Origin: a virus
Taxonomy: Duplodnaviria > Caudoviricetes
Length of the DNA: 47,652 bases
Virus record (IMG/VR): IMGVR_UViG_3300010376_000050
Span: 1-47,652 of that record
Direction: 5' to 3' (one strand)
Of the stretch, positions 12,533 through 46,179 are shown piece after piece (position 1 is the stretch's first letter; the number at the start of each line of letters is the position of its first letter). The translations under genes were made by a program, and so were the position numbers. The notes beneath the pieces were generated by a model that saw only the letters and a program-made list of their open reading frames with translations, searched no databases and was not told where the DNA came from.

Positions 12533-13001
12533 CTACAGCGTTTTCGCCATCACCGTTCTCGGCCAGCAAACATTTCACGGAGTTTTCGGCCTCGCGTTTT
12601 TCGCGTTCCGAGAGCACGTGTTCGACGATTCCCGAGTGCTCCACGGCGAGCGGCGCGTAAACTCCGAGTATTTTTAAGCTCATGTCTTGGGCTTGAATTT
12701 GAATCGCGTAATCTTTCACCGTTCTCTGGTCCGTGACTTCACCTTCGTGAGCGAAGAACTGAGTTTTGCGAGCTCCGAGCAATTCGGCTTGATGTTTGGC
12801 GAAGCGGGCCGCGTCCCAACCTATTTTCTCGAGCTCGGCCAGGATGAGCGGGCGCATCGCCTTCAGTGCGTTGTTCGCTCCCTGTGGCGACGTATATCCC
12901 GCGGCTTTCGCGGCTTCGGCGATCGTTCGGGATTTCGAGAACACCTTCAGGAGACGGCGGCGTTGCGGCGAGAGTTTCTCGAAGGTGCGCTTTTTTTTCA
13001 T
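12504..13001 (-). CDS. terS: Terminase small subunit (putative)
   Basis: N-terminal HTH (TIAEAAKAAGY), FFAHEGEVTD...D...ILGVYAP...VEHSG pattern; upstream of TerL. Confidence 0.7.
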   Translation of the reverse strand: MKKKRTFEKLSPQRRRLLKVFSKSRTIAEAAKAAGYTSPQGANNALKAMRPLILAELEKIGWDAARFAKHQAELLGARKTQFFAHEGEVTDQRTVKDYAIQIQAQDMSLKILGVYAPLAVEHSGIVEHVLSEREKREAENSVKCLLAENGDGENAVDGEFVDDES

Positions 13002-13447
13002 CGGAACACGAGGCGCAAAAAGTTTTCCGCTCTTCGGACGTTGGCGGGCGAATTATACCAGCGGTTTACGCCCGAAGGATGAGGCACGACCGCGAACTCT
13101 CCGCGGCCGAGTCCCCAACGCCTCGTCTCGAGGATCGGAAGCGGATCGGCGAAGAAGGCGCGCGCTACGTTCGCTCCGAGCAGAATCACCAGCCGGTAAC
13201 GAACGAGCGAGGGGAAAAGCGCCGCCGCTTCCTCCCGCGCGATCTCGAGCGGAAACGCATCGCCCTTCCCGTTCTTTCCGCAGAAGCGCGAGAGCAGGTT
13301 TACGACGTCCGCTTTCGCGAAAAGTTCGGCGAGGGAAAGCCCGGCGAACTCGGCGAGCCGCGAACCGCTTCCGGGACCATCGAGGGGCGCTTGGCCCAGC
13401 CGGTGTCGCTTCGACGGTCCTTGCGCGATCACCAGCACGTTTTTCAC
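12998..13447 (-). CDS. Uracil-DNA glycosylase superfamily protein
   Basis: VLVIAQGPS (motif A variant), SGSRL, VILLGANVA and VPHPSGVNRWYN (motif B). Confidence 0.75.
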   Translation of the reverse strand: MKNVLVIAQGPSKRHRLGQAPLDGPGSGSRLAEFAGLSLAELFAKADVVNLLSRFCGKNGKGDAFPLEIAREEAAALFPSLVRYRLVILLGANVARAFFADPLPILETRRWGLGRGEFAVVPHPSGVNRWYNSPANVRRAENFLRLVFR

Positions 13448-14382
13448 CCCGCAGTCTCTCCGTCGACGACGAGGCGCATGCCGTAGTCGTCCTTCCCGGC
13501 CGGGATTCTATACCACTCCGGGCGCGGCGCCAACTTTTGTTTGAATCCCGAGTAGTCGACCTGGTGATGAACACGCCCGAACTTCTCGACCACCTTCGCG
13601 ATCTCCGGGTAGACGGCGGCGAGCATCTCCGATTTCGCCACCGTCCCGTTCTCCGCGTACCGCTTCCCTTCTTCGCGGCGGCCTTCGGCCCAGTAGAAGT
13701 CGGCGGTGCAGCCGCCCTTCAAAAGCTGAGTCCCTTGCTTCAAGATCAAGAAGGCGTTGAACAAGACCGTCACCCAACCGTCCGAGAGCAGGTCGAGCGA
13801 AAGGATCGTGTCCTCGTTGTACCTCCCCCGCCACCGCGCCGCCGCGTCGTTCCGCACGAGGTTGCACGAATAAATCCGCGTGTTGGTCGTGAACGGCGGC
13901 ATCACCGTTTTCCGCGAAGCGAACATAAAATAATTCGGCCCGGCCATCCCGACGTTCTCGTACCGCGAGCAGAAATCCTCCATCGCCCGGAAGAAGGCCG
14001 GAGAACGGCAGGGCGTCTTCAAATTGTGATTCAGCCGGAAGAACCCGTAGAGGTTGTCGTCCATAACCCAGTGCCACGCCGCCCCGCGGGCGACGGAGTC
14101 GGCCCAGGCGAAGTTCCGCGCCGGTCCCGGGCCGGTCGACTTCGAGAGCCCGAGGTCGTCGCACGTCTCGTACCGCTCCTTGAACGCCAGATCGAGTTCG
14201 AGCACGTCGGCCGCCAAGTCGTGATACTCCACCGCCCGCCGGTACTTCTCCGCCTCGGCCGGTTCGGCGACGACGTAGTGACGGACGCCCATCTCGGTCA
14301 GGTGTTTAGACGTGATCATCAACTCCGACCGCCCCTTCGAGACGACGTAGAGCGGGTGACGCGGATACGGGCGGTCACTCAT
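13444..14382 (-). CDS. TET-associated/GREB1-like glycosyltransferase (TAGT, GT-A fold)
   Basis: PLYVVSKGRS, GPARNFAW, WHWVMDDN, NTRIYSC, WRGRYNEDTILSL and GRVHHQVDY motifs. Confidence 0.85.
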   Translation of the reverse strand: MSDRPYPRHPLYVVSKGRSELMITSKHLTEMGVRHYVVAEPAEAEKYRRAVEYHDLAADVLELDLAFKERYETCDDLGLSKSTGPGPARNFAWADSVARGAAWHWVMDDNLYGFFRLNHNLKTPCRSPAFFRAMEDFCSRYENVGMAGPNYFMFASRKTVMPPFTTNTRIYSCNLVRNDAAARWRGRYNEDTILSLDLLSDGWVTVLFNAFLILKQGTQLLKGGCTADFYWAEGRREEGKRYAENGTVAKSEMLAAVYPEIAKVVEKFGRVHHQVDYSGFKQKLAPRPEWYRIPAGKDDYGMRLVVDGETAG

Positions 14383-14797
14383 AGCTCTTGTCCGCGAACC
14401 TCCCGATCTCCGCCTTCGGATACCAGATCGAGCGCGTCGTGAGGTTTATCGTCTGATCGACGAGCCGGGCGAAACGTTCCATCGCCGAGCGCGACTCGAA
14501 GTGAACGAGGACCGACGCGAACGGTTCGAGGTCTTTCTGAACGAACTCCGGCATCGACCGCCAATGTTCTTCCCACCACGTGCCGATCTCTAAGAGCGGG
14601 ATCTGCCCGTCGGATTCCAATTCGGCCCGCATCGGCGGCGCCGCCTCCGGTTCCGCTTCTTCCGGTTCTCCGCCGACGAGTTCCTCGACCGGGTTCCCGG
14701 AGGAGTCGGTTTCCTTCCCGTCTCCGGAAAACAAACCGAATTGTTCTCCGCCGACGGTCACGATCTCGCCTCCCGACGGGCGCTCTTCGCACCGCAC
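14375..14797 (-). CDS. Small acidic protein coupled to the glycosyltransferase
   Basis: WEEHWRSMPEFVQ...VHFES...TRSIWYP; stop overlaps the GT start region. Confidence 0.65.
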   Translation of the reverse strand: MRCEERPSGGEIVTVGGEQFGLFSGDGKETDSSGNPVEELVGGEPEEAEPEAAPPMRAELESDGQIPLLEIGTWWEEHWRSMPEFVQKDLEPFASVLVHFESRSAMERFARLVDQTINLTTRSIWYPKAEIGRFADKSYE

Positions 14798-25075: not shown

Positions 25076-25257
25076 CCGCCGTTCGCCTTCGGCGGCTTGA
25101 ACCTCTCGAACTTCGTGCCGATCAGCGAGAACAGCCGGTAAAGCCACTTGAGGAAGTAATTGTTGCCCGTGTAGACCGGGATCGCGCTCGAGATCGCGCC
25201 GAGTATCCAGGCGGACAACGCCCCCATCTCGAATCCGGTCCGCAATTCGTGCGTCAT
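25072..25257 (-). CDS. Small membrane protein, holin candidate
   Basis: Hydrophobic 61 aa at the end of the late operon. Confidence 0.45.
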   Translation of the reverse strand: MTHELRTGFEMGALSAWILGAISSAIPVYTGNNYFLKWLYRLFSLIGTKFERFKPPKANGG

Positions 25258-25631
25258 TTTGGCTTCGGCGGATTAGGTGGAATCCGCGGGGCCTGAGTCC
25301 CGGGAGGAGGTATTTCTTTAGAGCTCACTTTGTTCGATGCCGCCGACTCCTGGCCATCCTCGGACTCGGCCGTCACGTACCACTCGTAGACGCCGATCTC
25401 GGGCTTGGCGAAGACCAGGTAATACGTCGCCGTCGTCGTCAGCATCTTGCGGAACTTGTCCCCGTTGAAGTTGACGTAGAGGTCGTACCGTGCGGCGGCC
25501 GCGCTCTTGGTCCACTTCAGCGTCGGCAACTTGGCGTCGGCGTCCCAACTCACCTTTACCGTTTCGGGGGCTTTGCCCTTTTGCGCGGGCGCGGCGGACG
25601 CCAGGAGTAGAATCAGGACGAGCGGCCTCAC
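25254..25631 (-). CDS. Secreted fibronectin type III-like protein
   Basis: Signal MRPLVLILLLASAAPAQ; LKW...YDLY...YEWYVTA...ESAASN. Confidence 0.7.
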   Translation of the reverse strand: MRPLVLILLLASAAPAQKGKAPETVKVSWDADAKLPTLKWTKSAAAARYDLYVNFNGDKFRKMLTTTATYYLVFAKPEIGVYEWYVTAESEDGQESAASNKVSSKEIPPPGTQAPRIPPNPPKPK

Positions 25632-28275: not shown

Positions 28276-31200
28276 CTATGGTCCAGCCAAAGGATGAGGG
28301 TATTGGTACGGCTGGTAATACTGCGTCCACGTGTTCGTAGCAGTGCACACGAAAAGCGTATTGGTGTCCGTTTCCCAGTAACCTACGCCTGGACTGTTGC
28401 CCGCAGGATAGGCTATAGAGTTAGCTGTGCATGTTGCAGGCCGTGAAGCGTGAGTTCCTGCGCCCGTCCCGCTCGCCCCAGTGAATGAAGTCGTGTATGC
28501 GAAGAAATCCTTGTTTGCCACGACTGAGCTGCCATTGAATACCACGCTAGTGGCCATGTTCGTAGCAGCATCTTTGGTTTCAAGCCACTGATACCAAGGT
28601 TCTATTTTCTGTCTGGGCCATGTGGCGGGATTCGTGCCTTGAGTCGTATTGGTTTTACCGCTGCCGCCATCAACAGGCCAGTTCCCGGCAAGTAAGTCTC
28701 CCTGCCCTCGACCCACAATATCGAAACAGGCATAGCCGGTAGCATCTGAGTTCTGATCCATTGGGGAGGAACTTCCATTCGAACCCGTGCCGCAATAGCC
28801 AGGACTCTGAGGATAAGCGGACATTGCGTGAGCGGCCACTTCCCGCATGATTCTGAATACAGTCACGTTCTGATAGCCTGCGGTATAGGTATTCCCCCAG
28901 TCCATTCCGGTGCCGCTCGACACCTCGCCCCCAGCATATTGTGAGTTCCCCGTCGGATTAGGATTTTGGAAGTAGTTCTTGTAAGCCTCGATGACTCTGC
29001 ACCCGCGTCCACTGTTCCCTTGTCCAACACCATGAGACTGATACTCGCCAGAATATCCCACTACAACCAAGTGGTTGTAGCGCAGGACCATGCGCCCGCC
29101 ATACTGGCAATCGTTCGCAAACCCTCCGTTGAAGTAGTTAGATTCTATGAATATCGCCTGTGAACTCCCCAGATTGGCTGGCTGGTTGTAGTCAACATCC
29201 CCACCGCTCGACCCGTTATAGACTTTCACCATGTTGCCTTGGTTCGGGGCCTCGAAAAGATTGTGGTCAACCACTCCATAGACTGGCGAAAAGCTGAGCA
29301 GGATTGCAGTGCCGTTGTTCTGCGTGGCCGACGTGTTGAAGTTGAAATGGTTGTGGTCCGCACGAAAGCTTGAAGTGCTGCCGCCGACGGCAACTACCCC
29401 GTTGAATTTCGCCCCGCCTGTTCCGCCGTTGAAAGTCATCCCAGTGATGCGTAAACTCCCCGTGGATCCAACGCTGAATATAACAGCCCTGTCGTTGCCT
29501 GAAATGTTATCCACGATCACTGTTCCGCTCGTGCCATTGGCGTCTGCACAGCTATAAGTCGAGCTGCCCGCTGTGCCTGTACAGTTCACAGTCGTTCCAC
29601 CTTGAACTGTTACGGTAGCTCCAGAGGGGACCGTGAGAGTGGTAGGAATGCTGGCCCACTGTCCCGAGGTGCTTGGGCAAGGAGACGGGAAAACTATGAT
29701 GTAGGCTGCGTTGGCAGCCACCGAACTCCACTTTGATTGCAACTGTGCTTGGCTGCAATCAGTCATGCTCAAGATCGTTCCCGAGCCGCTGCTAACACAA
29801 TTTAGCGAAGCTGGATTGACCGATGAAATTCCCGTATTCGTAGCGGTTATTGATACCGTGCCCACCGCGTTGCAGGTAGCCAGACCAGCATTGGTGATCG
29901 TGGCAAACAAGGTGTTAGAGCTGCCCCAATTCGTACAGTTGTAAGCGTTCCCGCTTTGAGTTCCGACGCAACTATATTGCTGCTGTCCTGGCGGGTTGAT
30001 GACTAGAGTTCGCGTCGTGGGATTGATCGAAAGAGAGGTGTCCGTGGTGGTTGAAGTTACGGTGAGCGTGGCCGCGCCTGTGGGGGAACCGCCCGCGTAG
30101 GTGCCTGTAATCGTCGTGGTGCAAGTGGTCGTAATGGTCAGGGCGGTTATAACCCCGGTGGCACCATTGACAGTGGCGCAGGAAAGATTGCTGGAAGTAG
30201 AGGTCACGGTCCCGGCCGGTACTGTTGCTCCGGTAGCCGTAAGGGCTAAGCCTGCCGTGACCGCATAACCATTCGACGTGGTGTTAATGACGTCGGCAGC
30301 CCCGGAGCTGGTGTTCAACAAACTGGTGGCCGCCGTTTTCTCGCTATTCGGCAGAGAATTTTGGGCTTCCAAGGTATAAGGAGAATTTACTGAAGCGATG
30401 CTGCCGCCATTCACCGCCCAACCTCTTAGAATCGCGTCCGTAGTTCCAGTGGGACTCAGGGTCGCGCCTGTTATGGCTGTAGCTAAAGTTAGCCGCTTAA
30501 CAGTTGCTGCTGTATCAAATGACCATGTTCCGTTGCTTGGTGCCAATTCCCAATAATAAACGTAAGTCTGCGAAGAACCTGAGAAGGTAATAGGTATAGA
30601 TGTCATTCCCGCTGGGGCCGTGGCATAGGCACAGCTTACCGTTGAAAACACGTTGGTGTTGTCTGTGACCGAGCAGCCGCCGGGGATAGTCCAGGTAGCT
30701 GATCCCCCAACCGAAAATATCGGTGAGTTGTTTGCAGCCATGATGACCAAGGCGTTGCCCGAGGTAGTGGAAGGAACCGTGATTGTGATGCTGGAACAAG
30801 CAGTCGTGCAGCTATTTCCAGTAGCGGAAGATGGTCCGTGAGTTGTTGTCCAAGTGCCGCTCGCGGTTCCGCCAGGAGCAAGAGGAAGGTTAGCCGTGGA
30901 ACCATCATTGTAATTTCCTGTATAGCTGACCGTCGTCGTGCCCCCGCTTGGAATGCTTGATTGGGCCAGATTGGCAGTCATCGAGGAAAGACTGGCTACC
31001 GTGATTCCAGAGGAAGCCACAAAGTCATTCGACAGTGGTGTCGGACTAGTGGAATCAACCACATGTACGGTGAAGCTGGAACCGGCTGCCGCCGTGGTAG
31101 GTATGCCAGTGAACAGACACCCGGTGTCGCCGCCAATATTGGCTTGGGTTATCCCGGCCGGCAGCGATCCCAGACTGATCGTACAGGTATAAGGAGCCGT

Positions 31201-31983
31201 GGCTCCCGTAGCCGTAATTCTGACTCCTTGACCAACGCCTTGGGAGCCATTGACCCCGGTCGGAGCCACTGAATAGGATCGCAGAATCTGCCCGTTGGGC
31301 AGAGGATTTGTGTTTTGAATTGTGACGCTGCCAGTCGCTCCGACAACCGTCGCGACAGCCGTACCAGTGAGGCTTAAGAAAGCGGCATTCACGTTGCAAG
31401 TCCCAACCGTCGTTCCCGCCGTGAAGAGTCCCGTAGCTGCACCTACCGTGCTTCCAGTGCAGCCACCAGTACCACCCGAGGGTGTCCATGCCGCCAATGT
31501 GGTTACGTCGATAGTAGTGTTGTTGCTGTAAGCCGCCGAGGCCGCAAATTGCTGCGTCGCAGATTTGTTTACGTTCGCCGTGAGCGGGCTGACTGTAATC
31601 AAGGAAAGATTGGCAACAGTTATTGCAATCTGTTTTTGCTCTACCTTACCCTGGGAATCTACCCACTTAACGGTCCAAAGCGCAGTTCCTGCCGTGGGAG
31701 TTGCTCCAGAGATAGAGGCAGTTCCACCAACCGTCAATATAATACCTAGCTGTGTGGCCGTTCCGCTTACGCGCGTCCACGTAACTGAACCGACCGCTCC
31801 GACTGCAACAAAGTTTCCGCTGCTGTACGATATTCCTTCCTGCGCATTTGTGTTGGGGATGGTGATATCAAGGAACGGTTGGGCGCAGATACCGGAATGA
31901 CCCGCAGTAGTGCCGCATTGCGCTCGGGCCAGCAACGGGAAGGCGAGAAGCAGTAACAACAGCCTGTAGATCGTCCGCATCAT
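28276..31983 (-). CDS. Secreted Ig-like repeat adhesin with C-terminal beta-helix (1235 aa)
   Basis: Sec signal ...LLARA|Q; putative Ig (GSLPAGI...GIPT) and Big_2-like repeats; C-terminus paralogous to the 813-aa protein. Confidence 0.75.
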   Translation of the reverse strand: MMRTIYRLLLLLLAFPLLARAQCGTTAGHSGICAQPFLDITIPNTNAQEGISYSSGNFVAVGAVGSVTWTRVSGTATQLGIILTVGGTASISGATPTAGTALWTVKWVDSQGKVEQKQIAITVANLSLITVSPLTANVNKSATQQFAASAAYSNNTTIDVTTLAAWTPSGGTGGCTGSTVGAATGLFTAGTTVGTCNVNAAFLSLTGTAVATVVGATGSVTIQNTNPLPNGQILRSYSVAPTGVNGSQGVGQGVRITATGATAPYTCTISLGSLPAGITQANIGGDTGCLFTGIPTTAAAGSSFTVHVVDSTSPTPLSNDFVASSGITVASLSSMTANLAQSSIPSGGTTTVSYTGNYNDGSTANLPLAPGGTASGTWTTTHGPSSATGNSCTTACSSITITVPSTTSGNALVIMAANNSPIFSVGGSATWTIPGGCSVTDNTNVFSTVSCAYATAPAGMTSIPITFSGSSQTYVYYWELAPSNGTWSFDTAATVKRLTLATAITGATLSPTGTTDAILRGWAVNGGSIASVNSPYTLEAQNSLPNSEKTAATSLLNTSSGAADVINTTSNGYAVTAGLALTATGATVPAGTVTSTSSNLSCATVNGATGVITALTITTTCTTTITGTYAGGSPTGAATLTVTSTTTDTSLSINPTTRTLVINPPGQQQYSCVGTQSGNAYNCTNWGSSNTLFATITNAGLATCNAVGTVSITATNTGISSVNPASLNCVSSGSGTILSMTDCSQAQLQSKWSSVAANAAYIIVFPSPCPSTSGQWASIPTTLTVPSGATVTVQGGTTVNCTGTAGSSTYSCADANGTSGTVIVDNISGNDRAVIFSVGSTGSLRITGMTFNGGTGGAKFNGVVAVGGSTSSFRADHNHFNFNTSATQNNGTAILLSFSPVYGVVDHNLFEAPNQGNMVKVYNGSSGGDVDYNQPANLGSSQAIFIESNYFNGGFANDCQYGGRMVLRYNHLVVVGYSGEYQSHGVGQGNSGRGCRVIEAYKNYFQNPNPTGNSQYAGGEVSSGTGMDWGNTYTAGYQNVTVFRIMREVAAHAMSAYPQSPGYCGTGSNGSSSPMDQNSDATGYACFDIVGRGQGDLLAGNWPVDGGSGKTNTTQGTNPATWPRQKIEPWYQWLETKDAATNMATSVVFNGSSVVANKDFFAYTTSFTGASGTGAGTHASRPATCTANSIAYPAGNSPGVGYWETDTNTLFVCTATNTWTQYYQPYQYPHPLAGP

Positions 31984-32735
31984 TTGTGGAAAGCCGATAT
32001 CAAAATAATGTACTTGGTTCCGCTCGTGCTGAGCGTAGTCGCCGGCGTGATGGTTGCTATAGTCTGCTGCTGATACGAAGCCATGTTGCTGGCCGATACG
32101 TTAAGATATGTAAGCAAGGAACCATTACTCTCCGTACCCGACCCCGCCCAACTGCATCCTATGAACAATTCGTTATTCTGCGAAACGGTCATGGTAGTCG
32201 GGGAATTGCACTTCATGTTGTTCGTGCCCGTGCCGGAAGTGGTAGTGCCGTCTGTATCCTTGCAAGACGAATCAAGTGGTGAAGCGGCGTTGCCGGTTAT
32301 CAGAGCTGCTTCGCAGAATATGTTGGCTGAAGCGGAATTCCGGCAAGTAACCGCGTCGGTCCCAGAGCTGCCGGAGACGGTATAATATGTGCACATTACT
32401 TCATTTGCTAAGTCGGTGGTAGATTGTATGAAGCCGTAGCTATTTCCAAGCGTATCCGTAGGGTTGGTGCCGGTGCACGTACCCCCGAAGCCCGCTAAGG
32501 TTTGGACGAAGATCAGCTTGCCGCTGGTCGGATTAGTGGAGAAGTTGCCAACGGTGCAGGATGTAACGGTGCTACAAAACAGCGATTGCCGATCCACGAT
32601 CGTTGGCCCGGTGTAGCCAGCCACCGTGACTTTCCTGTGTCCGCCCGTACTGATGACGGCATCCTGAGCAAACAGGGAAAGAGTCAGCCCTGCGAACACG
32701 ACCGCCGCCCTTATTGCGTAAAAGCCACGACCCAT
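31980..32735 (-). CDS. Secreted Cys/Thr/Ser-rich beta protein (251 aa)
   Basis: Signal ...LTLSLFA|Q; TDTLGNSY motif. Confidence 0.7.
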   Translation of the reverse strand: MGRGFYAIRAAVVFAGLTLSLFAQDAVISTGGHRKVTVAGYTGPTIVDRQSLFCSTVTSCTVGNFSTNPTSGKLIFVQTLAGFGGTCTGTNPTDTLGNSYGFIQSTTDLANEVMCTYYTVSGSSGTDAVTCRNSASANIFCEAALITGNAASPLDSSCKDTDGTTTSGTGTNNMKCNSPTTMTVSQNNELFIGCSWAGSGTESNGSLLTYLNVSASNMASYQQQTIATITPATTLSTSGTKYIILISAFHK

Positions 32736-35700
32736 GTTGATTGCTTGCTCGCTCCGTCAGAAACAAACGTAAACTTGATGTAATCACCGCTCGCTATCGT
32801 CGTCGTCGCGCTCTGAGTTCCCGACGCAAAGGCGTTCGTGCAGGTGACGGCTCCAGTTAGGAGACCGGTGCCCGCTCCGTTCGTGGCGTTCAGCGTCGAG
32901 GTGCCGTTGTTATCCGTCAGACACTTGATGCTGGTGATCGTCCAGGTTACGCCACTGTAGTTATAGCAGGTATATTGCAGGTAGGTGCCGGACGTGATGG
33001 CGTTCAAACCGTCGCCGATGCCCGGCTCGCAGCCGAGTTTGCTATATTGAGCGGCGAGTTGCGTGGCCGTGACCGTGTTGTTAGTCATCATTGCGCCGGT
33101 CACGGACGAGCAAGTGCCCACGGCAGTAGCTTGGGCAATGGCTGTTACAACCTGGTTGGTGCAAGATGTGGCTGCCGAAAGAGTTGGATTCGGATACGTT
33201 CCCCCGAGTGCGCCACCCGCTGCACCGGACGGCGCTCCCGCCGCCCCACCGTCCGCCAAGCATGGATAGTTGGTGCCGAATACCGCAAGGTGGCCAGCCA
33301 CAGGGGATGTGCTGCATTGCAGGGCGAGATATTGCCATGCGGAAGCCAGCACGTTATAAGACATATCGGCCGACTGAGGACCGCATGTGAAGATTCCTCC
33401 TATTGTCGGAGGGCTGATGGACGGAGGAGTGTTGGCGGCAGTGCAGGGAAAGAACAGGTTGGGGCCATTGAAGTCGAAGGCATTCAGATACAATATGCTA
33501 ATCGGATTCGCCAGACTGCCTATCGTCTTGGAGTAAAAACCCCCTCCCGAAAGCCACTGCGCGAACAAAGTTCCCGTACCGTTGTCCAGCACGGCGGTCG
33601 TGGTAGTCGAGATAGTATTTATATCTACGGAATTCCCGGTCGAAGCCGCGTCGGAGATCTTGATGCCCACGCCGCCGTCGCCCGTCGGGTTGTTGAAGTT
33701 CGATATGTTGTTCCGCGAGAGGTCTACGTTGTTGCTGTTCGTCATGACGATCGCCGGGACCGTGCCGCCCGACCCCAGACCGGGGATGATGTTGTCGCTC
33801 ACGGAGCTGTTGCTGATGTTCGATACTACGATGAAGTTTTGGGCGACGGCCGTCGTGGCGAAGTTGCGCAGCGTGTTCCCGCGGACGAAAATTTCCGAGG
33901 ACTGCCCCGCCGTCGTGTTGCCGACGATCGAGATGCCCGTCGACGCAGTGGCCGTGAAGCTGTTCGGCTGACACTCGTTGTCGATGATCATCAACCCGAA
34001 CATCTGTATCGCCGCGCCGTTGTCGCTCGTTATCGAGATGCAGCCGTTGTTCGACCCGAACGAGTTGTTGTCCACGTGCGAGTAAGTCAAGTTCCCCGAG
34101 GACGACGCTTTCAGTTGGATATCCCAACCGACGCTCGCCGTCGGACCGTTGCCGCCGAAGATGTTCTTGTCGATGTACAGGCTCGAACCGCCGTTCGTGA
34201 AGTTGATCCCGCCCAGCAGGCCGTTCGCGAAGATGTTGCTCATCAGATAGACCTGGCTGAGGCTGGTCGACGAAGAGTAGACCAAGTACCCGCCGGTGGT
34301 TTGGTTGGCGCGGTTCCCGTCGACGTAGCAATACTCCAGCGTCAAGGTTCCACCGGCAGCGATGGTGATGACGTTGGCGTTCGAGGCGTTCGGAATCGTT
34401 ATCGTGGTCGAGGGAGTTCCGTTCGGCTGAGCGCAAATGATGTGCGTCGGCTTACTGATTGTTACAGCCCCGGCGTACGACCCGGCCGCCAGGAAAATCG
34501 AACCCCCGGCCCCGGGCAGTGCGTTCTCGGCAGCTTGAATCGTGGCCTTGGCCTGGTTGTAGGACAGTCCGTTGTTGGAATTGTTCCCGTACGTGGTGAC
34601 GTACATCACGCCGTCCGTCGCGCTCGGGATGTTCGACGACAAACCGGGTATGACGACGTTCGCGCTGCCCATGCCGCACAGGCTGCCGACCGGGCAGCTG
34701 GTATCGTAGCTCTTCAGGTTGTCGTAGTAGTCGAGCACGGTAGTGTCGTCGAGTCCGAGCGTGGCGGGGATGTAGTTGATCACCAGCCCGTAGACGTCGG
34801 TGCGGTTCGCCGCGGTCGCGCGTACAAACCCACCCAGCTCGCAGGTCGTCGAATCCGAGCCCCACTTCACGTAGCCGGAAAGCCAGACGTAATTCGTGGC
34901 CACCGTGAAAATATCGGGCTGGAGGTACGGGTAATAATTCGCGCGGGCAACCGATGACGCCGTGCACGCGCCTCCGGTCATAGACCAAGAGAACGGTGTG
35001 TTGCCCGTGAAAACACCGCCATCAGGCGCGCGGAACCAGCCGCCGTAGAGCACCCAGTCCCCCGCGTGAAATACACCCGTGACGTCGTAAACCGTCGCAC
35101 CGCCGAACGGAGAGATGGTAGAGGAGATGCGCGTCGCGTTCGCCGCCCCTATCGGGTCGCCGGTCGAAGCGAGGGTGGTCGTTCCACCCGTGTTGTAGGG
35201 AATCCAAGACGCCTGCGGAATCGAGACGTTGGCGTATTGAACCGGCTCGAGCGGGAAGGTGCGCTTCACCTGGTCGAGTTCTCCCATGACGCGCTGCCTT
35301 TGATAGCCCAGTTGTCGGTTGTTGATCGCGTCGGCCAGCAAATCAAAGCCATCGACTTTGTTCTGGCTGAGCAGAAGCATGGGACCTTTTACGGGAGCTT
35401 GCTGGCCCTGAACACCATTTACGACCACATCGTTGGGAGCCGCAGCATCTACCCTGACCGCGTAGGATGGCGGCGTGGCGGCACCGCCCGCACAGTCGGC
35501 GTTCGTGATGTGCTCGAACGTGTAGTGATTGCCCTGAGAATTGTCCAGCCAAACGACCGGATCACACACGCCGCCGGTCGAGCTGTCCAGCTCGGCCCAT
35601 TTGATATCTAACCCATTCACTTGACCGCCGTAGATTCTGATGCCCGAGTCACCACCAATAGAAACGTGATCGAGCGTTGCGATGCCCAGGGCCTTCAGCG

Positions 35701-38700
35701 ACATCGCCGAGCGTCGGTAGCTGCCCACGGGCTCGTTGTTGTTCGCTTCCGCACCGATGTAACTGAACCATTGCCAATAGCCGCCGACGACGTCCCAGTC
35801 GGGACCGAACCCGGCCGTATTATTGATCAGCGGATAAACGTGGTCGAAAAGAATCGAGGAGTTGTAGCACAACCCGGTGCGGTCGTTGTTACTGCACTCG
35901 CCGTCGACCACGCCGCGGCCCGGGTACTTGAACGCCATGTTGCGGAACGTCATCTGCTGAAAAATCTGAGAGAGCCAGATGCCCGGTTTGTTGTTACTTG
36001 GCCCGCCCGCGTTGGATAGCAGCATCTGGCCGGTGCCGTCGCCCTGAACAATGAGCGGTCCATAGTTTTCCTTCATCCAGCAGGTGGGCGGAGTGCTGAA
36101 GTTCGGATCTCCTGGACCCATAATGTAGAGTCCCGAGTTCGCGTCTTGAGCGCAGGCGTACGTGTTGTCGGCGTAATAGACCGTCCCGGCCCCCTGCGTG
36201 TACGGCGGACCGGCGCAAGAACCTCCGGGAAGCGCGCAGATGGCGTTGTCGATGTTTAGTTTGGCCGTGCCCCAGGTGGTGCCGTCGTTCGCGTTCGATC
36301 CCCAGGGCGCGGCGTAGCGGACGGCGGCGGCGGTGGGAGTAATCGGAACGTAACTCGTCGACGAAGCTGGCCCCCCGATGCCGCACACCGTCGCCACCGG
36401 GCAGTTGTTCGCGTACGGAACGACGGTCGAGGCGTACATGAATGCCTCGTTCGCACTCATCGCCCCGGCCGTAGCGTGATTGAAAATCGGCGCGTAATAC
36501 TCGATCGCGTGCGTCGTATCGTAGGGGCCGTAGAAACCGACGAAAACGGGGCTGCTGGTTACCGAGGTAACATAACAGACCAGGTAGAGCAAGTCCCACT
36601 GACCGTCTCCGCCCACGATCGGCTGCCCCGAGCCGCTGTTGCAACTGAACGATCCACCAACCTGCGTGATCAGTATGTTCCCGGGAATCCCGTTGGCCGT
36701 CTGAGACCTCGCCCACACCTTGGCGACGAACACGTCGCCCACGCCCACGGTCATATTCGTCTGCGGCATCAGGTAAGCGTACTGCGTGCCGGACGTGGAA
36801 ACGAACCTCGCGGCCCCGGCGGTGCCGTCCGGCGCCGTAACGCCGGTAGTTACGGTGGTGCTGCCGCTGTTCGTAACGCTCGTCATCGTGGTGGTGGCCA
36901 GGTTCGGAAAGCGCACGGCGGCGGGGGCGAACATCCTAGAGGTATCTTCGCGGAAGCCGACCGGGTGACCGCTTTGAAAGCCCACTTGACCTTTCAAGAG
37001 CGGCGACGCTTTCTCGTAGGCGGCCTGATAGTCGTTGCCCAGGATCGTCATAGGGCCGAGAGTGTTCAGGTTTATTCCGAACCCCGAAGGGTCGTAGCCC
37101 TGAACCCCGTTGACCACCAGGTTGCCGTAGACGGCTTCGTTCCTCACGGCCGGGATCACGTTCGGGCCGAAATAGTCCTGCAGCTCGATCGCTTCGATCT
37201 CGCAATCGAGGCACGGGCCGCCGGTGGCGCCGTGCGAAGTAAACCATACGCCGGGCTCCACGTTCGTCCCGAAAGCCTCGATGTCCAAAGCACGGACGCG
37301 GATCGAGGCGAATCCCGTGTCGACGTAATACTTCACGCCGCCGCCGCAGTACCACCAGTTGTTGTCCAGCTGCCAGGCGAACGATTGCGTGTTCCCGAGC
37401 CCGGCGCTGATCAAGATGTTCGCACCACCGTCCGAGCCCGGCGTGGCGCCGCAATCGGTCGCCAGCGTGGTATGATCCATATAGTTCTGAAACGAATTCT
37501 GCCCCTGCTTGATCGTCGGACCACCGGTGCCGTTGTTCGTGGTGACGATGATCGCGTCGTTCGTGAAGTGCATCGAGACGGATCCACCCGTGTTGGCACC
37601 CGTCGAGTCGTAACCCATCTGCACGGGTTGCTTGCTTCCGAAGGTGATGTTCTCGATGGTGACGCCCGAACCGTTCAGCACCACCATCGTCGTCGGGGCC
37701 GTGCCGCTGACCGTCAGACAGGATTTGCCGCCACCGGTGGACAGCGAGGCGTTCAGCTCGCGGCTGACGCCAACTATCGTTATCGCTTGATTTCCCGCGG
37801 CGACGTGCATCCAGCCGTTCGGCGGGCTGGCGTAATTCGGGTCGCCCGCGCCCATAAAGCCCAAGCCGACGGGCGGAGACGTGTAGGGGTTCCAGAGGGC
37901 GCAGTTCGCCTGCCCGTTCGAAAGCACTTCGACCACTCCCGTCCCCGCCGTGGGAGGCGAGACCGCCCCGCCCGGCAACGCCTCGAGCGCAGCTTCGACG
38001 GATGCTTTGCACGAACCGCGGCCTTTGCCGTCGTTCGAGTCGTTACCGGACGACGAAACGCATTGATACGCATTCGTAGCTATTTTCGGATCGAACGAAC
38101 CCACCGTGGGCGTCCCCGACGTGACCGGCCCCGGGACGGCGATGCTCGTGCCGCCCGCGTTCGTCGTGATGCCCGACGGCCCCACCACCGCGGCGGTCCC
38201 CGCGTTCGTGTAGAACGGCAGACTGAATTGCGCTCCGGGACTGACCGTGCCCGAACCACCTCCACCGGCGGGCGTCGAGCAACCGAGAACTAACCCGGCC
38301 CCCAGAGACGAGGCGAACTGACCGGGAGAGCAAGAACTGCCGGCCGGAACGTCCGCCGCGGCGAGCGTGTGGCCGGTCCATACTCCACCGACGACTTGCA
38401 GAAACTGACCGGCCGACGGCACCCCCGAAGCCACTGGCGTGTTCCTGATGCCGACTACCGTTTGACTGGTCGGTGATCCGCTCAGGTCCCCGGCCGCGAC
38501 GAACCCGCCGCCCCCGCCGCCGCCGCCGTTGGCCACCCAAGCGGTGCAGTTGTTATTCGACGAAGCTTGGCAAATCCGTTGACTGAGCAGCGTCACGTTG
38601 TAGTAGAAAGCCCCGATCACGACGCCCGTCAATTCCTGATCGCCGTAAGCCGTGACCGGCTGCGTGGCCGTGAACAGGTTTATCCGTATCGAAGGGGGCG

Positions 38701-39112
38701 TCAACGTCACCGTCTGCGGCGACGTCGTTGCCACCGTAACCTGTTGCGTGTAGCACGGTGAGCTCGCCTGCGGGCAAACCTGAAACACCCAGATCGAATC
38801 GGCCGGTATAATGTTCGCGTTCGCCGGCAGCAAGATCGTCGCCGTACCGGTGGCGCTCAACGCGCCTTGCTGCGGTGCCGTCGAGCCCCCTCCGCCCGAC
38901 ACCGTGTATATTCCCGACGGGTTATTGCCGATCCGCATGGTCAACGACACCGACCACGTGCCGTTATTCCACGTCTGATTGTCCGGCGTGTCCCGGACCG
39001 TCAGATTCACCGTCGTTTGGGCCGTCAGACGACCGGCGAACAAGAGCAGAAAGAGCAGCGGAAGTACCTTATTCGTCGTCTTCGCCAAGATCTTCAGGGT
39101 TTGCCTCATCAT
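32711..39112 (-). CDS. Giant tailspike/tail-fibre-like protein with three beta-helix modules and a signal peptide (2133 aa)
   Basis: Fibre motifs GDLSGS and GGTYPNPT; three GxxxNxG...KxxxxxAxxALPG beta-helix caps; N-terminal KVLPLLFLLLFAGRLTA|Q. Confidence 0.8.
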   Translation of the reverse strand: MMRQTLKILAKTTNKVLPLLFLLLFAGRLTAQTTVNLTVRDTPDNQTWNNGTWSVSLTMRIGNNPSGIYTVSGGGGSTAPQQGALSATGTATILLPANANIIPADSIWVFQVCPQASSPCYTQQVTVATTSPQTVTLTPPSIRINLFTATQPVTAYGDQELTGVVIGAFYYNVTLLSQRICQASSNNNCTAWVANGGGGGGGGFVAAGDLSGSPTSQTVVGIRNTPVASGVPSAGQFLQVVGGVWTGHTLAAADVPAGSSCSPGQFASSLGAGLVLGCSTPAGGGGSGTVSPGAQFSLPFYTNAGTAAVVGPSGITTNAGGTSIAVPGPVTSGTPTVGSFDPKIATNAYQCVSSSGNDSNDGKGRGSCKASVEAALEALPGGAVSPPTAGTGVVEVLSNGQANCALWNPYTSPPVGLGFMGAGDPNYASPPNGWMHVAAGNQAITIVGVSRELNASLSTGGGKSCLTVSGTAPTTMVVLNGSGVTIENITFGSKQPVQMGYDSTGANTGGSVSMHFTNDAIIVTTNNGTGGPTIKQGQNSFQNYMDHTTLATDCGATPGSDGGANILISAGLGNTQSFAWQLDNNWWYCGGGVKYYVDTGFASIRVRALDIEAFGTNVEPGVWFTSHGATGGPCLDCEIEAIELQDYFGPNVIPAVRNEAVYGNLVVNGVQGYDPSGFGINLNTLGPMTILGNDYQAAYEKASPLLKGQVGFQSGHPVGFREDTSRMFAPAAVRFPNLATTTMTSVTNSGSTTVTTGVTAPDGTAGAARFVSTSGTQYAYLMPQTNMTVGVGDVFVAKVWARSQTANGIPGNILITQVGGSFSCNSGSGQPIVGGDGQWDLLYLVCYVTSVTSSPVFVGFYGPYDTTHAIEYYAPIFNHATAGAMSANEAFMYASTVVPYANNCPVATVCGIGGPASSTSYVPITPTAAAVRYAAPWGSNANDGTTWGTAKLNIDNAICALPGGSCAGPPYTQGAGTVYYADNTYACAQDANSGLYIMGPGDPNFSTPPTCWMKENYGPLIVQGDGTGQMLLSNAGGPSNNKPGIWLSQIFQQMTFRNMAFKYPGRGVVDGECSNNDRTGLCYNSSILFDHVYPLINNTAGFGPDWDVVGGYWQWFSYIGAEANNNEPVGSYRRSAMSLKALGIATLDHVSIGGDSGIRIYGGQVNGLDIKWAELDSSTGGVCDPVVWLDNSQGNHYTFEHITNADCAGGAATPPSYAVRVDAAAPNDVVVNGVQGQQAPVKGPMLLLSQNKVDGFDLLADAINNRQLGYQRQRVMGELDQVKRTFPLEPVQYANVSIPQASWIPYNTGGTTTLASTGDPIGAANATRISSTISPFGGATVYDVTGVFHAGDWVLYGGWFRAPDGGVFTGNTPFSWSMTGGACTASSVARANYYPYLQPDIFTVATNYVWLSGYVKWGSDSTTCELGGFVRATAANRTDVYGLVINYIPATLGLDDTTVLDYYDNLKSYDTSCPVGSLCGMGSANVVIPGLSSNIPSATDGVMYVTTYGNNSNNGLSYNQAKATIQAAENALPGAGGSIFLAAGSYAGAVTISKPTHIICAQPNGTPSTTITIPNASNANVITIAAGGTLTLEYCYVDGNRANQTTGGYLVYSSSTSLSQVYLMSNIFANGLLGGINFTNGGSSLYIDKNIFGGNGPTASVGWDIQLKASSSGNLTYSHVDNNSFGSNNGCISITSDNGAAIQMFGLMIIDNECQPNSFTATASTGISIVGNTTAGQSSEIFVRGNTLRNFATTAVAQNFIVVSNISNSSVSDNIIPGLGSGGTVPAIVMTNSNNVDLSRNNISNFNNPTGDGGVGIKISDAASTGNSVDINTISTTTTAVLDNGTGTLFAQWLSGGGFYSKTIGSLANPISILYLNAFDFNGPNLFFPCTAANTPPSISPPTIGGIFTCGPQSADMSYNVLASAWQYLALQCSTSPVAGHLAVFGTNYPCLADGGAAGAPSGAAGGALGGTYPNPTLSAATSCTNQVVTAIAQATAVGTCSSVTGAMMTNNTVTATQLAAQYSKLGCEPGIGDGLNAITSGTYLQYTCYNYSGVTWTITSIKCLTDNNGTSTLNATNGAGTGLLTGAVTCTNAFASGTQSATTTIASGDYIKFTFVSDGASKQSTWVVAFTQ

Positions 39113-40780: not shown

Positions 40781-41032
40781 TTACTTGTAGCTGGTTGGTT
40801 TCTTTTGCCCGTATTGGCGCACCACGCTGCCCACCGGGTGATCCTGTATGCCGGTGCGCGTGCGCGCCTGCGTGAACTCCGTCGCCCCGCCGCCGATCGA
40901 CGTGGCTACGGGCGCCCCGCCGACGTCCGTGCCGCCGTCGCGGACCGGAGAAGTCGACGTCTCGCCGTCGATCACCACGCTCGCTTCGTTGGCGAACCGC
41001 TTGGCATCCTCTCTGTTGCCGAAAAAGCTCAT
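40781..41032 (-). CDS. Small peptide B with RTRTGIQ motif (83 aa)
   Basis: AAAGGAGG RBS; motif shared with the upstream peptide. Confidence 0.75.
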   Translation of the reverse strand: MSFFGNREDAKRFANEASVVIDGETSTSPVRDGGTDVGGAPVATSIGGGATEFTQARTRTGIQDHPVGSVVRQYGQKKPTSYK

Positions 41033-41067
41033 AAGAACCTCCTTTCGTCCGTCACTATACTATTTCT

Positions 41068-41304
41068 CTAATGCCCTGTGTCTTGCGGCTTTCCGTTCGG
41101 ATGATGCTTTAATCCGAACGTGCGGTCGCCCCACACGTACTCGGAATTCTGTATCCCCGTACGCGTCCGCCCCATGTCGCTGTAAATCTCGACGAGCTTG
41201 GTCGGCTCGGCCTCGATCGGCTCGTCGACGCTTTGCTTCGACAACGACGTCTTTTTTCGGTCGTCCGGCTTGCGGATGTCCGCGATCGGAACGTGTTCGC
41301 TCAT
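41068..41304 (-). CDS. Small peptide A with RTRTGIQ motif (78 aa)
   Basis: GGAGGAG RBS before MSEHV. Confidence 0.75.
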   Translation of the reverse strand: MSEHVPIADIRKPDDRKKTSLSKQSVDEPIEAEPTKLVEIYSDMGRTRTGIQNSEYVWGDRTFGLKHHPNGKPQDTGH

Positions 41305-41333
41305 TTTACTCTCCTCCCGCAACGCGCTATAAT
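41305..41333 (+). promoter_or_regulatory. Antisense sigma70-type promoter
   Basis: TTTACT-N17-TATAAT, with ATG 6 nt downstream. Confidence 0.65.
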
Positions 41334-45384: not shown

Positions 45385-46179
45385 CTAATACCTCTCGACC
45401 ATCGGCGTAACCTGTATCACGGACAGCCGCCGGTCGCGCTCCTGCTGAAGCGTCCGCGCCTCGATCAGTCCCGGGCGCCCGAGGCGGCCGTCCGGCAGCG
45501 CGCTCTTCGGATCGCCGTAAAGCAATTCGTGAAGGAACGTCGCCTGCTCGTTCCACCGCAGCGCCACGGCCCCGCGCTCGGCCGCGGCGTACCCGATGAT
45601 ATCGTGCCAAGAGGGCGGGACGCAGACGTCGCTCTCACCGACGTTCTCGTCGTTGAATTTATGCCTCAACTGATACGGCAAATACACTTGGTAATTCGTG
45701 CCCGGCTGCGTGCCGAACCAGAACTGATTGCCGAACCGCGTGTACTTGAACGGTATCCCGCCCGGGATGAACAAAAGCGGCTGGATGGCCTTGGGCGTCA
45801 AGTAATCCATCGAGTAAGCTCCGGCGGCCGACGTGGCCAGCGCGGCCGTCGCCGCCCCGATCGGCGAAAGGAAGATCACCGGGTCTTCCATCAGCGTGAC
45901 GTCGTCGCCCGTGGCGATGAACTGACTGACCAGGTACGCGTAGTTCGAGCCGTTAACCCCGAGCCGCGGCCCGATCGTCACGAGCGGCGGATTCGGCTGC
46001 CTTAACTCTTCGAAGGGCAAACTCTCGGTTATCTCCCGGAGCGCGTCGCGGATCCACGAAGACGGCCGCATCTCCGGGTTCGCGTTCGCCTCGGTGACGT
46101 CGCCGCGGTTCTGCAGCGCCGCCACCACGCGCGGGATCAGTTCGCGTATCTTCGCCGTCGCTCCACCGGGGTTGTTCAT
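45385..46179 (-). CDS. Head-tail adaptor (tail tubular A / gp4-like)
   Basis: ELIPRVVAALQNRGD...WIRDALREI...VPPSWHDIIGYAAA pattern. Confidence 0.7.
   Translation of the reverse strand: MNNPGGATAKIRELIPRVVAALQNRGDVTEANANPEMRPSSWIRDALREITESLPFEELRQPNPPLVTIGPRLGVNGSNYAYLVSQFIATGDDVTLMEDPVIFLSPIGAATAALATSAAGAYSMDYLTPKAIQPLLFIPGGIPFKYTRFGNQFWFGTQPGTNYQVYLPYQLRHKFNDENVGESDVCVPPSWHDIIGYAAAERGAVALRWNEQATFLHELLYGDPKSALPDGRLGRPGLIEARTLQQERDRRLSVIQVTPMVERY

Follow-up and report, generated by a model that had tools for sequence, protein, structure and literature searches.

Two short proteins, encoded side by side in the virion region of a soil phage and followed by the gene of an ATP-grasp ligase, carry the same seven residues, RTRTGIQ, and the question raised by this locus is what the shared sequence is for: is it a site at which the ligase modifies the two peptides, or a signal that belongs to the virion? 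The window (the whole analysed stretch of 47,652 nucleotides) is a virus record that is 96% complete and represents an uncultured soil phage of podovirus type. Its terminase, portal, capsid protein and a weakly matching adaptor are all encoded on the minus strand; the adaptor is followed by three genes that lack a family match, then by peptide A, peptide B, the ligase, a short acidic ORF and large tail-region genes (Table 1). The products of the three genes, for which family searches gave no match, we infer to be ejection proteins from their size and the gene order, by analogy with the ejection-gene synteny in the accessible part of PMC8954989, which was used as a guide.

Table 1. Features of the window at and around the peptide-ligase locus
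Feature	Positions	Strand	Remarks
Tail adaptor	45385..46179	-	SU10_adaptor match weak, E 0.008; virion-module marker
Three ejection-like genes, 247, 594 and 471 aa	41406..45381	-	Assigned by size and position after adaptor
Antisense hydrophobic ORF, 44 aa	41340-41474	+	Between last ejection-like gene and A
Antisense sigma70-like promoter	41305-41333	+	Between last ejection-like gene and A
Peptide A, 78 aa	41068..41304	-	Predicted disordered
RTRTGIQ in A	41149..41169	-	Residue 46 of 78; codons CGG ACG CGT ACG GGG ATA CAG
RTFGLK in A	41107..41124	-	R-x-aromatic partly conserved, GxK not
Peptide B, 83 aa	40781..41032	-	Predicted N-terminal helix (7-17), then extended
RTRTGIQ in B	40844..40864	-	Residue 57 of 83; codons CGC ACG CGC ACC GGC ATA CAG
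RQYGQK in B	40802..40819	-	R72 invariant; K77 kept in 18%
PurD-like ATP-grasp ligase, 525 aa	39185..40762	-	Ligase about residues 1-420, fused to HAD-like domain (DLDGT)
Asp/Glu-rich ORF, 39 aa	39069..39188	-	Overlaps ligase stop

Small hydrophobic antisense ORFs of differing sequence are found in L138, L139, L154, L155, L208, L404 and L408 at the same place as in the window, and the arrangement is reminiscent of a superinfection-exclusion moron. The last ejection-like protein, otherwise unalignable, often ends in a Pro-Val-Pro-type sequence (TPVP, APVP, APLP; seen in L048, L142, L289, L292, L293, L411, L412 and L417). Before the terminase (12998-14797, minus strand) lie a TET-associated-type glycosyltransferase (PF20691, E 8e-34) and two coupled unknown genes, possibly a DNA modification module. 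The large tail-region ORFs (32711-39112, 31980-32735, 28276-31983 and 25254-25631, minus strand) have signal-peptide-like hydrophobic N-termini ending in A-Q or similar, as do downstream genes of L139, L154, L207 and L208, which is unusual for tail fibres; the products of these ORFs may be exported proteins or ones associated with an envelope. Among nine genome loci with relatives of the ligase, three are in Acidobacteriaceae genome bins, a weak hint that Acidobacteriaceae are the hosts of this phage family.

The heptamer was first noticed in a sequence-only reading of this DNA, and most of that description stands. Minus-strand codons, read directly, give RTRTGIQ at both places; the four codon differences are all synonymous, every one at a third position; the spacing to RTFGLK or RQYGQK is eight residues in either peptide; and the two chains are indeed otherwise dissimilar, with a profile-profile probability of 0.9% between A and B and the motif region alone aligning. 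No homology outside the motif was detected by that comparison. About 1.9e-5 shared 7-mers are expected between A and B, a shared length of 7 was reached in 0/20,000 shuffles, and a further RTRTG[IVL]Q was found in none of the six frames of the window. Since the DNA repeat shared by the two motif regions is only 28 nt long at 79% identity, conservation is at the protein level; a regulatory repeat acting as DNA is ruled out, and so is a fusion of A with B, by the 35-nt gap and the separate ribosome site.

Both peptides are products of real genes under purifying selection: a GGAGG-type ribosome site precedes each ORF, and comparison of the window with the related locus L118 gives dN/dS of 0.20/0.87 for ORF A and of 0.075/0.55 for ORF B, dN being far smaller than dS in both. 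Their chains are predicted to be unfolded, the model of B showing a single helix and otherwise an extended stretch (pLDDT 61, pTM 0.22) and the Atlas model of A having pLDDT 0.29. Each is near neutral overall (12 K+R and 13 D+E in A, 10 and 9 in B), and the motif-bearing half is basic, with a median of +4. Neither peptide of the window matches Pfam, PHROGs or NCBIfam, their family profiles find nothing significant in PDB, B has no match among GenBank phages, and Atlas searches gave no usable match. A and B are two new, unannotated families of mini-proteins; that their motif is under selection, as the first description had proposed, is borne out by the chance test, the family conservation and the dN/dS values.

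For the family comparison, 92 clusters of B came from a protein search, and 18 clusters of A were joined by 7 more from a protein search, with one repetitive 1004-aa match dropped; the final sets, including locus-derived sequences and keeping near-duplicates, hold 33 unique A and 114 unique B sequences. The core R[TS]R occurs in 33/33 A sequences (3 of which came in through a pattern containing RTR) and 83/114 B sequences, R[TS]R[TS]G[IVML] in 20 and 52, and exact RTRTGIQ in 12 and 27, respectively. The entire motif as originally written, RTRTGIQ-x8-Rx[FY]GxK, is over-specified: its RTR core is conserved, but the closing part is not, as Rx[FYW]GxK is seen in 7/33 A and 17/114 B and the full pattern in 4/33 and 13/114. 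A looser [RKT]-x-aromatic, 10-13 residues past the RTR core, is present in 20/33 A and 73/114 B, and the motif, on the evidence of these alignments, is properly R-T-R-x-x-hydrophobic followed by [RKT]-x-aromatic. In the A family RTRTGIQ is the tied best-conserved window of seven residues. In the B family TSPVRDG is better conserved than the motif, and constraint runs from end to end, with TSP[VI]RDGG, GGAP, EF[TS]xxRTR and the final R as the conserved blocks. In distant B proteins the motif takes the form RLR[AK]GI, in one case next to the gene of a third type of ligase; the distant B proteins of G069 and G071 escaped the genome search, and G064, G065 and G068 are fragments that stop before or at the ejection block. 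A low-depth contig from a second soil run has only synonymous changes across the B motif (a thin sample of one contig). The A homologs P0228, P0235 and P0237 are extended by a basic tail, which in P0237 shows a weak similarity to DUF3008 (E 0.013) and to five unnamed PHROGs; a search on DUF3008 found no relevant paper among freely readable main texts.

A pattern search in viral small ORFs had been suggested as a check on wider use of the motif, and it found the motif at this type of locus and in no unrelated small ORF. Scanning the DNA of viral contigs with the full motif gave 0 matches; looser RTRTGI[QH]D/N scans gave 34 stretches, of which two (L210 and L220, equal to G001 and G002) are small ORFs accompanied by A, B and the ligase. 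An exact RTRTGIQ was also seen at L164:1840-1860, where its frame overlaps an acidic ORF and is in frame with a small peptide downstream; it is absent from the related L171 and was treated as a shadow-frame coincidence, though an improbable and unexplained one.

What is kept together with the motif can be asked by looking at where the small genes stand. We examined 19 relatives in which the ligase lies elsewhere, 3 of them unscorable from the DNA at hand; in 16/16 scorable ones the ejection-like block ends with a basic ORF of low hydrophobicity, 42-86 aa long. In 14 of the same 16 the ligase gene precedes the adaptor gene at a distance of 4.7-12.6 kb; in the other 2 it is outside the examined DNA. 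These post-ejection peptides, which are Lys/His-rich, bear a weak likeness to the N-terminal half of B (E 0.014, probability 3%), and among 10,169 small ORFs they make up 4 of the 5 matches ranked after the true B proteins. When 39 records were picked by capsid protein or adaptor, and not by ligase, B was present in 18, including 8/8 of the near-complete ones. In a more distant clade, where 17 candidate positional equivalents were chosen by composition, 8 of the 17 repeat a short motif within one chain (5% shuffle level). The small peptides encoded there behind the last large gene have [IV][PA][NG][TV][IV]T or [IL]DP[KN]L in two or three copies (loci L095, L096, L099, L105, L106, L113, L191, L195 and L196). 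Several relatives (L403, L407, L408, L409 and L155) have insertions of HNH-like genes, placed immediately ahead of B or in the interval that separates B from the ligase.

The neighbouring ligase is a PurD-shaped protein. Its model (pLDDT 92.5) shares the whole N/ATP-grasp/C-domain fold with glycinamide ribonucleotide synthetase (PurD; TIGR00877; PDB 5VEV, 2YW2, 2XCL), and the top 15 Foldseek matches are all GAR synthetases; no graspetide ligase was found among the matches listed. Yet by score and by substrate motifs the enzyme is not PurD: in the NCBIfam scan it reaches 79.8 bits against purD (TIGR00877), where the cut-off is 288, and in the family profile QDHKR is replaced by TIERKQ and EFNARFGDPE by EFTPRFGYDAF. 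It further differs from PurD in the HAD fusion and in its location in a virion operon. Nor is it a graspetide ligase, the models TIGR04187 and TIGR04184 giving no match at E 1. The third ligase type (L422:888-2189, in G075), at 21% identity, was missed by Pfam GARS_A and NCBIfam; it fills the ligase slot there, which suggests that the gene at this position has been exchanged on more than one occasion. A literature search on such a ligase in phage virion modules found no relevant paper among freely readable main texts.

If the ligase acted on the motif, the two would be expected to change together, and they do not. G001 and G002 keep RTRTG[IM]Q in both peptides, and their ligase is 32% identical to that of the window and lacks the HAD domain; G008 and G016 have RTRMPI in A and no RTR in B, and their ligases are 56/58% identical and carry HAD. 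Identity to the window is 59/71% for terminase and 71/69% for adaptor in G001/G002, against 48/47% and 51/50% in G008/G016, so that terminase, portal and adaptor rank the two pairs opposite to the ligase. Capsid identity fails to separate them (82% in G001, motif kept; 83% in G008/G016, motif lost). A quick tree of 56 ligase rows nests the enzyme of the window among ligases without A/B nearby, and a 100-supported branch divides it from those of L207, L208 and L301; its closest relatives belong to head modules that lack A/B, and most of them follow lysin-like genes. Of 50 ligase-bearing records, the 4 with a strong B match are exactly those with a capsid protein 83-94% identical; a fifth, weak B match, in G009, comes after the final ejection-like gene and at a long distance from the ligase of that genome. 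In the capsid-plus-adaptor tree, the window, G002 and G001 share the TG state; G008/G016 branch outside them, with weak support (0.795), and past RTR the sequences of derived clades diverge, A being unlike B in several clades (RTRPPF vs RTRTKF; RTRIPM vs RTRHGW). TGI has given way to other residues in G052-G054 as well as in G008/G016. A is confined to part of this phage group. As judged by these comparisons, the motif tracks the virion genes, independently of the type of ligase, and for that reason it is likely to be a docking signal rather than a site of graspetide modification.

We see an even chance that A and B are minor virion proteins that work like gp6.7 and gp7.3 of phage T7, with a shared docking motif. 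Targeting to the capsid had been raised before as an alternative to modification, and of the two it is docking that fits the comparative data best, short of direct demonstration. Both peptides would be made late, probably together, and would be incorporated in extended form into the prohead or the tail, where the RTR motif of each would bind one repeated site on a common virion partner, for which the capsid inner face, the portal/adaptor, the scaffold or an ejection protein are candidates. B is the family-wide gene; A is confined to a single subclade and likely gained its motif by duplication or conversion from the C-terminal half of B, so that two ligands would serve one site; lineages in which A and B alike have lost the TG half would then point to a change in the shared partner. 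The internal motif repeats in the distant positional equivalents are as expected of multivalent docking. R[TS]R is missing from each of the three ejection-like proteins, so that the motif is not a general packaging tag; its matches in terminase and portal are at chance level only.

Two known systems resemble this arrangement. The capsid targeting signal of phage T4 is N-terminal and cleaved, whereas the A/B motif is internal, in B it is part of a chain conserved throughout, and the ejection-like proteins lack it. In both cases a short conserved sequence stands on otherwise unrelated small proteins: the internal proteins of T4, according to the part of PMC3012670 available, have in common only a targeting sequence. 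As described in the available part of PMC11784390, gp6.7 and gp7.3 of T7 are small ejected virion proteins of 88 and 99 aa; two short loops of gp6.7 bridge the portal and the core, and lysines of gp7.3 anchor the DNA end. They are like A and B in size, in being mostly extended chains and in belonging to a podovirus virion module, and the loops by which they dock on portal, core or tail proteins are the model for the docking proposed here. A and B differ in following an ejection-like block, in sharing one motif and in adjoining a PurD-like ligase. PDB and PHROG searches found no sequence similarity to the T7 small proteins, and the likeness is an analogy, not family membership.

Other readings of the shared motif were weighed as well. 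An arginine-rich motif might bind packaged DNA, condensing it or holding its end, instead of a protein, a reading that draws on the two invariant Arg with a further Arg downstream, on the Lys/His-rich composition of the distant positional equivalents and on the lysine-anchored DNA end of T7 gp7.3 (PMC11784390, in the part available); we regard it as improbable, because A and B are near neutral overall and residues other than Arg (Thr, Gly and Ile) are conserved too, which fits a site of defined shape better than charge alone. That two unrelated chains carry one motif would also be seen if A and B were effectors, made late or ejected, that meet one host protein through it or present it to a protease or kinase, and the joint loss in G008/G016 could then reflect a change of host. 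Quite improbable in our view, this reading has against it the fixed family-wide position and whole-length conservation of B, which are unlike those of variable host-takeover genes; no prohead protease was identified among the proteins of the window that were scanned. We hold it very improbable that the identical heptamer is a mere relic of duplication or gene conversion without shared function: the divergence between A and B after RTR in several clades would suit a relic, but third positions differ at 4/7 codons with residues unchanged, and RTR is kept in all A sequences while its flanks drop to about 45-50% identity.

The ligase itself gives rise to the remaining rivals. The sequence-only reading had pointed to Thr and Lys as the nucleophile types used by graspetide ligases, and the locus does share with graspetides (microviridin and plesiocin types), as far as the accessible part of PMC8939145 describes them, small ORFs directly upstream of an ATP-grasp gene and the presence of a Thr, here a conserved one. 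That the neighbouring ATP-grasp enzyme cyclises A and B, as graspetide precursors, by way of Thr and Lys is nevertheless scarcely credible. The same part of that paper has a Phhx(1,2)h-type leader in about half of graspetide precursors and leaders that follow the ATP-grasp phylogeny, but here the leader is present in 3/33 A and 2/114 B, the ligase has the PurD fold and leaves the two graspetide models searched unmatched, and the motif is scattered over the ligase tree. Among possible donors and acceptors, the Thr of RTR is conserved, an Asp at +7 is present in 53/81 B and is missing from most A, and the Lys is kept in 17-21%. A non-graspetide reaction fares better: A and B may be substrates or partners of the PurD-like enzyme, which would activate a carboxylate, e.g., one of the acidic 39-aa product, and link it to an amine that the RTR peptides carry or hold in place. 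This is not very likely either, since the motif state does not follow the ligase phylogeny, the closest ligase relatives are found in head modules without A/B and the Lys of the motif is not conserved; it stays a rival because the PurD-like ligase accompanies B in every near-complete relative. All 8 such records carry both, 7/8 by HMM and the eighth, G075, by profile alignment. G075 had been a candidate for B without ligase and was dropped when a 433-aa ORF one gene downstream of B aligned to the ligase profile (21%, E 6e-4, probability 28%), so that no B-bearing genome without ligase was found among the 8. In the A/B clade, moreover, the ligase lies within about 1 kb downstream of B despite three very different ligase types, and the motif-bearing half of the peptides is basic. 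The acidic ORF, a candidate carboxylate donor, follows the ligase, of whatever type, in 13/17 A/B-type loci and 1/39 other ligase loci, and was noted in the window, L118, L139, L154, L155, L207, L288, L289, L297, L298, L299, L301 and L164; it is 32-44 aa long and usually starts with MMP. In G009, G015 and G010, which lack this ORF, the second ejection-like protein ends in a resembling acidic DDE...D tail, not seen in G005, G048 and G023. It is rather unlikely, but would be a distinct outcome, that peptide(s), ligase and acidic peptide form an enzymatic system of virion maturation, in which the PurD-derived ligase, retained throughout the phage family, would covalently join or modify small virion peptides and the RTR motif would place them at the portal or core; our literature searches found no such phage peptide ligation described.

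This locus defines two unannotated families of mini-proteins whose genes hold a constant position across a large family of uncultured phages from soil, represented by 504 viral stretches with a related capsid protein, and its seven shared residues offer a way into the question of how these phages load ejected cargo or anchor it. The question of what the phage PurD-like ligase acts upon is narrowed, as the obvious motif next to it does not co-evolve with the enzyme; if maturation by the ligase were nonetheless true, virions would have a chemical route to maturity that is new.
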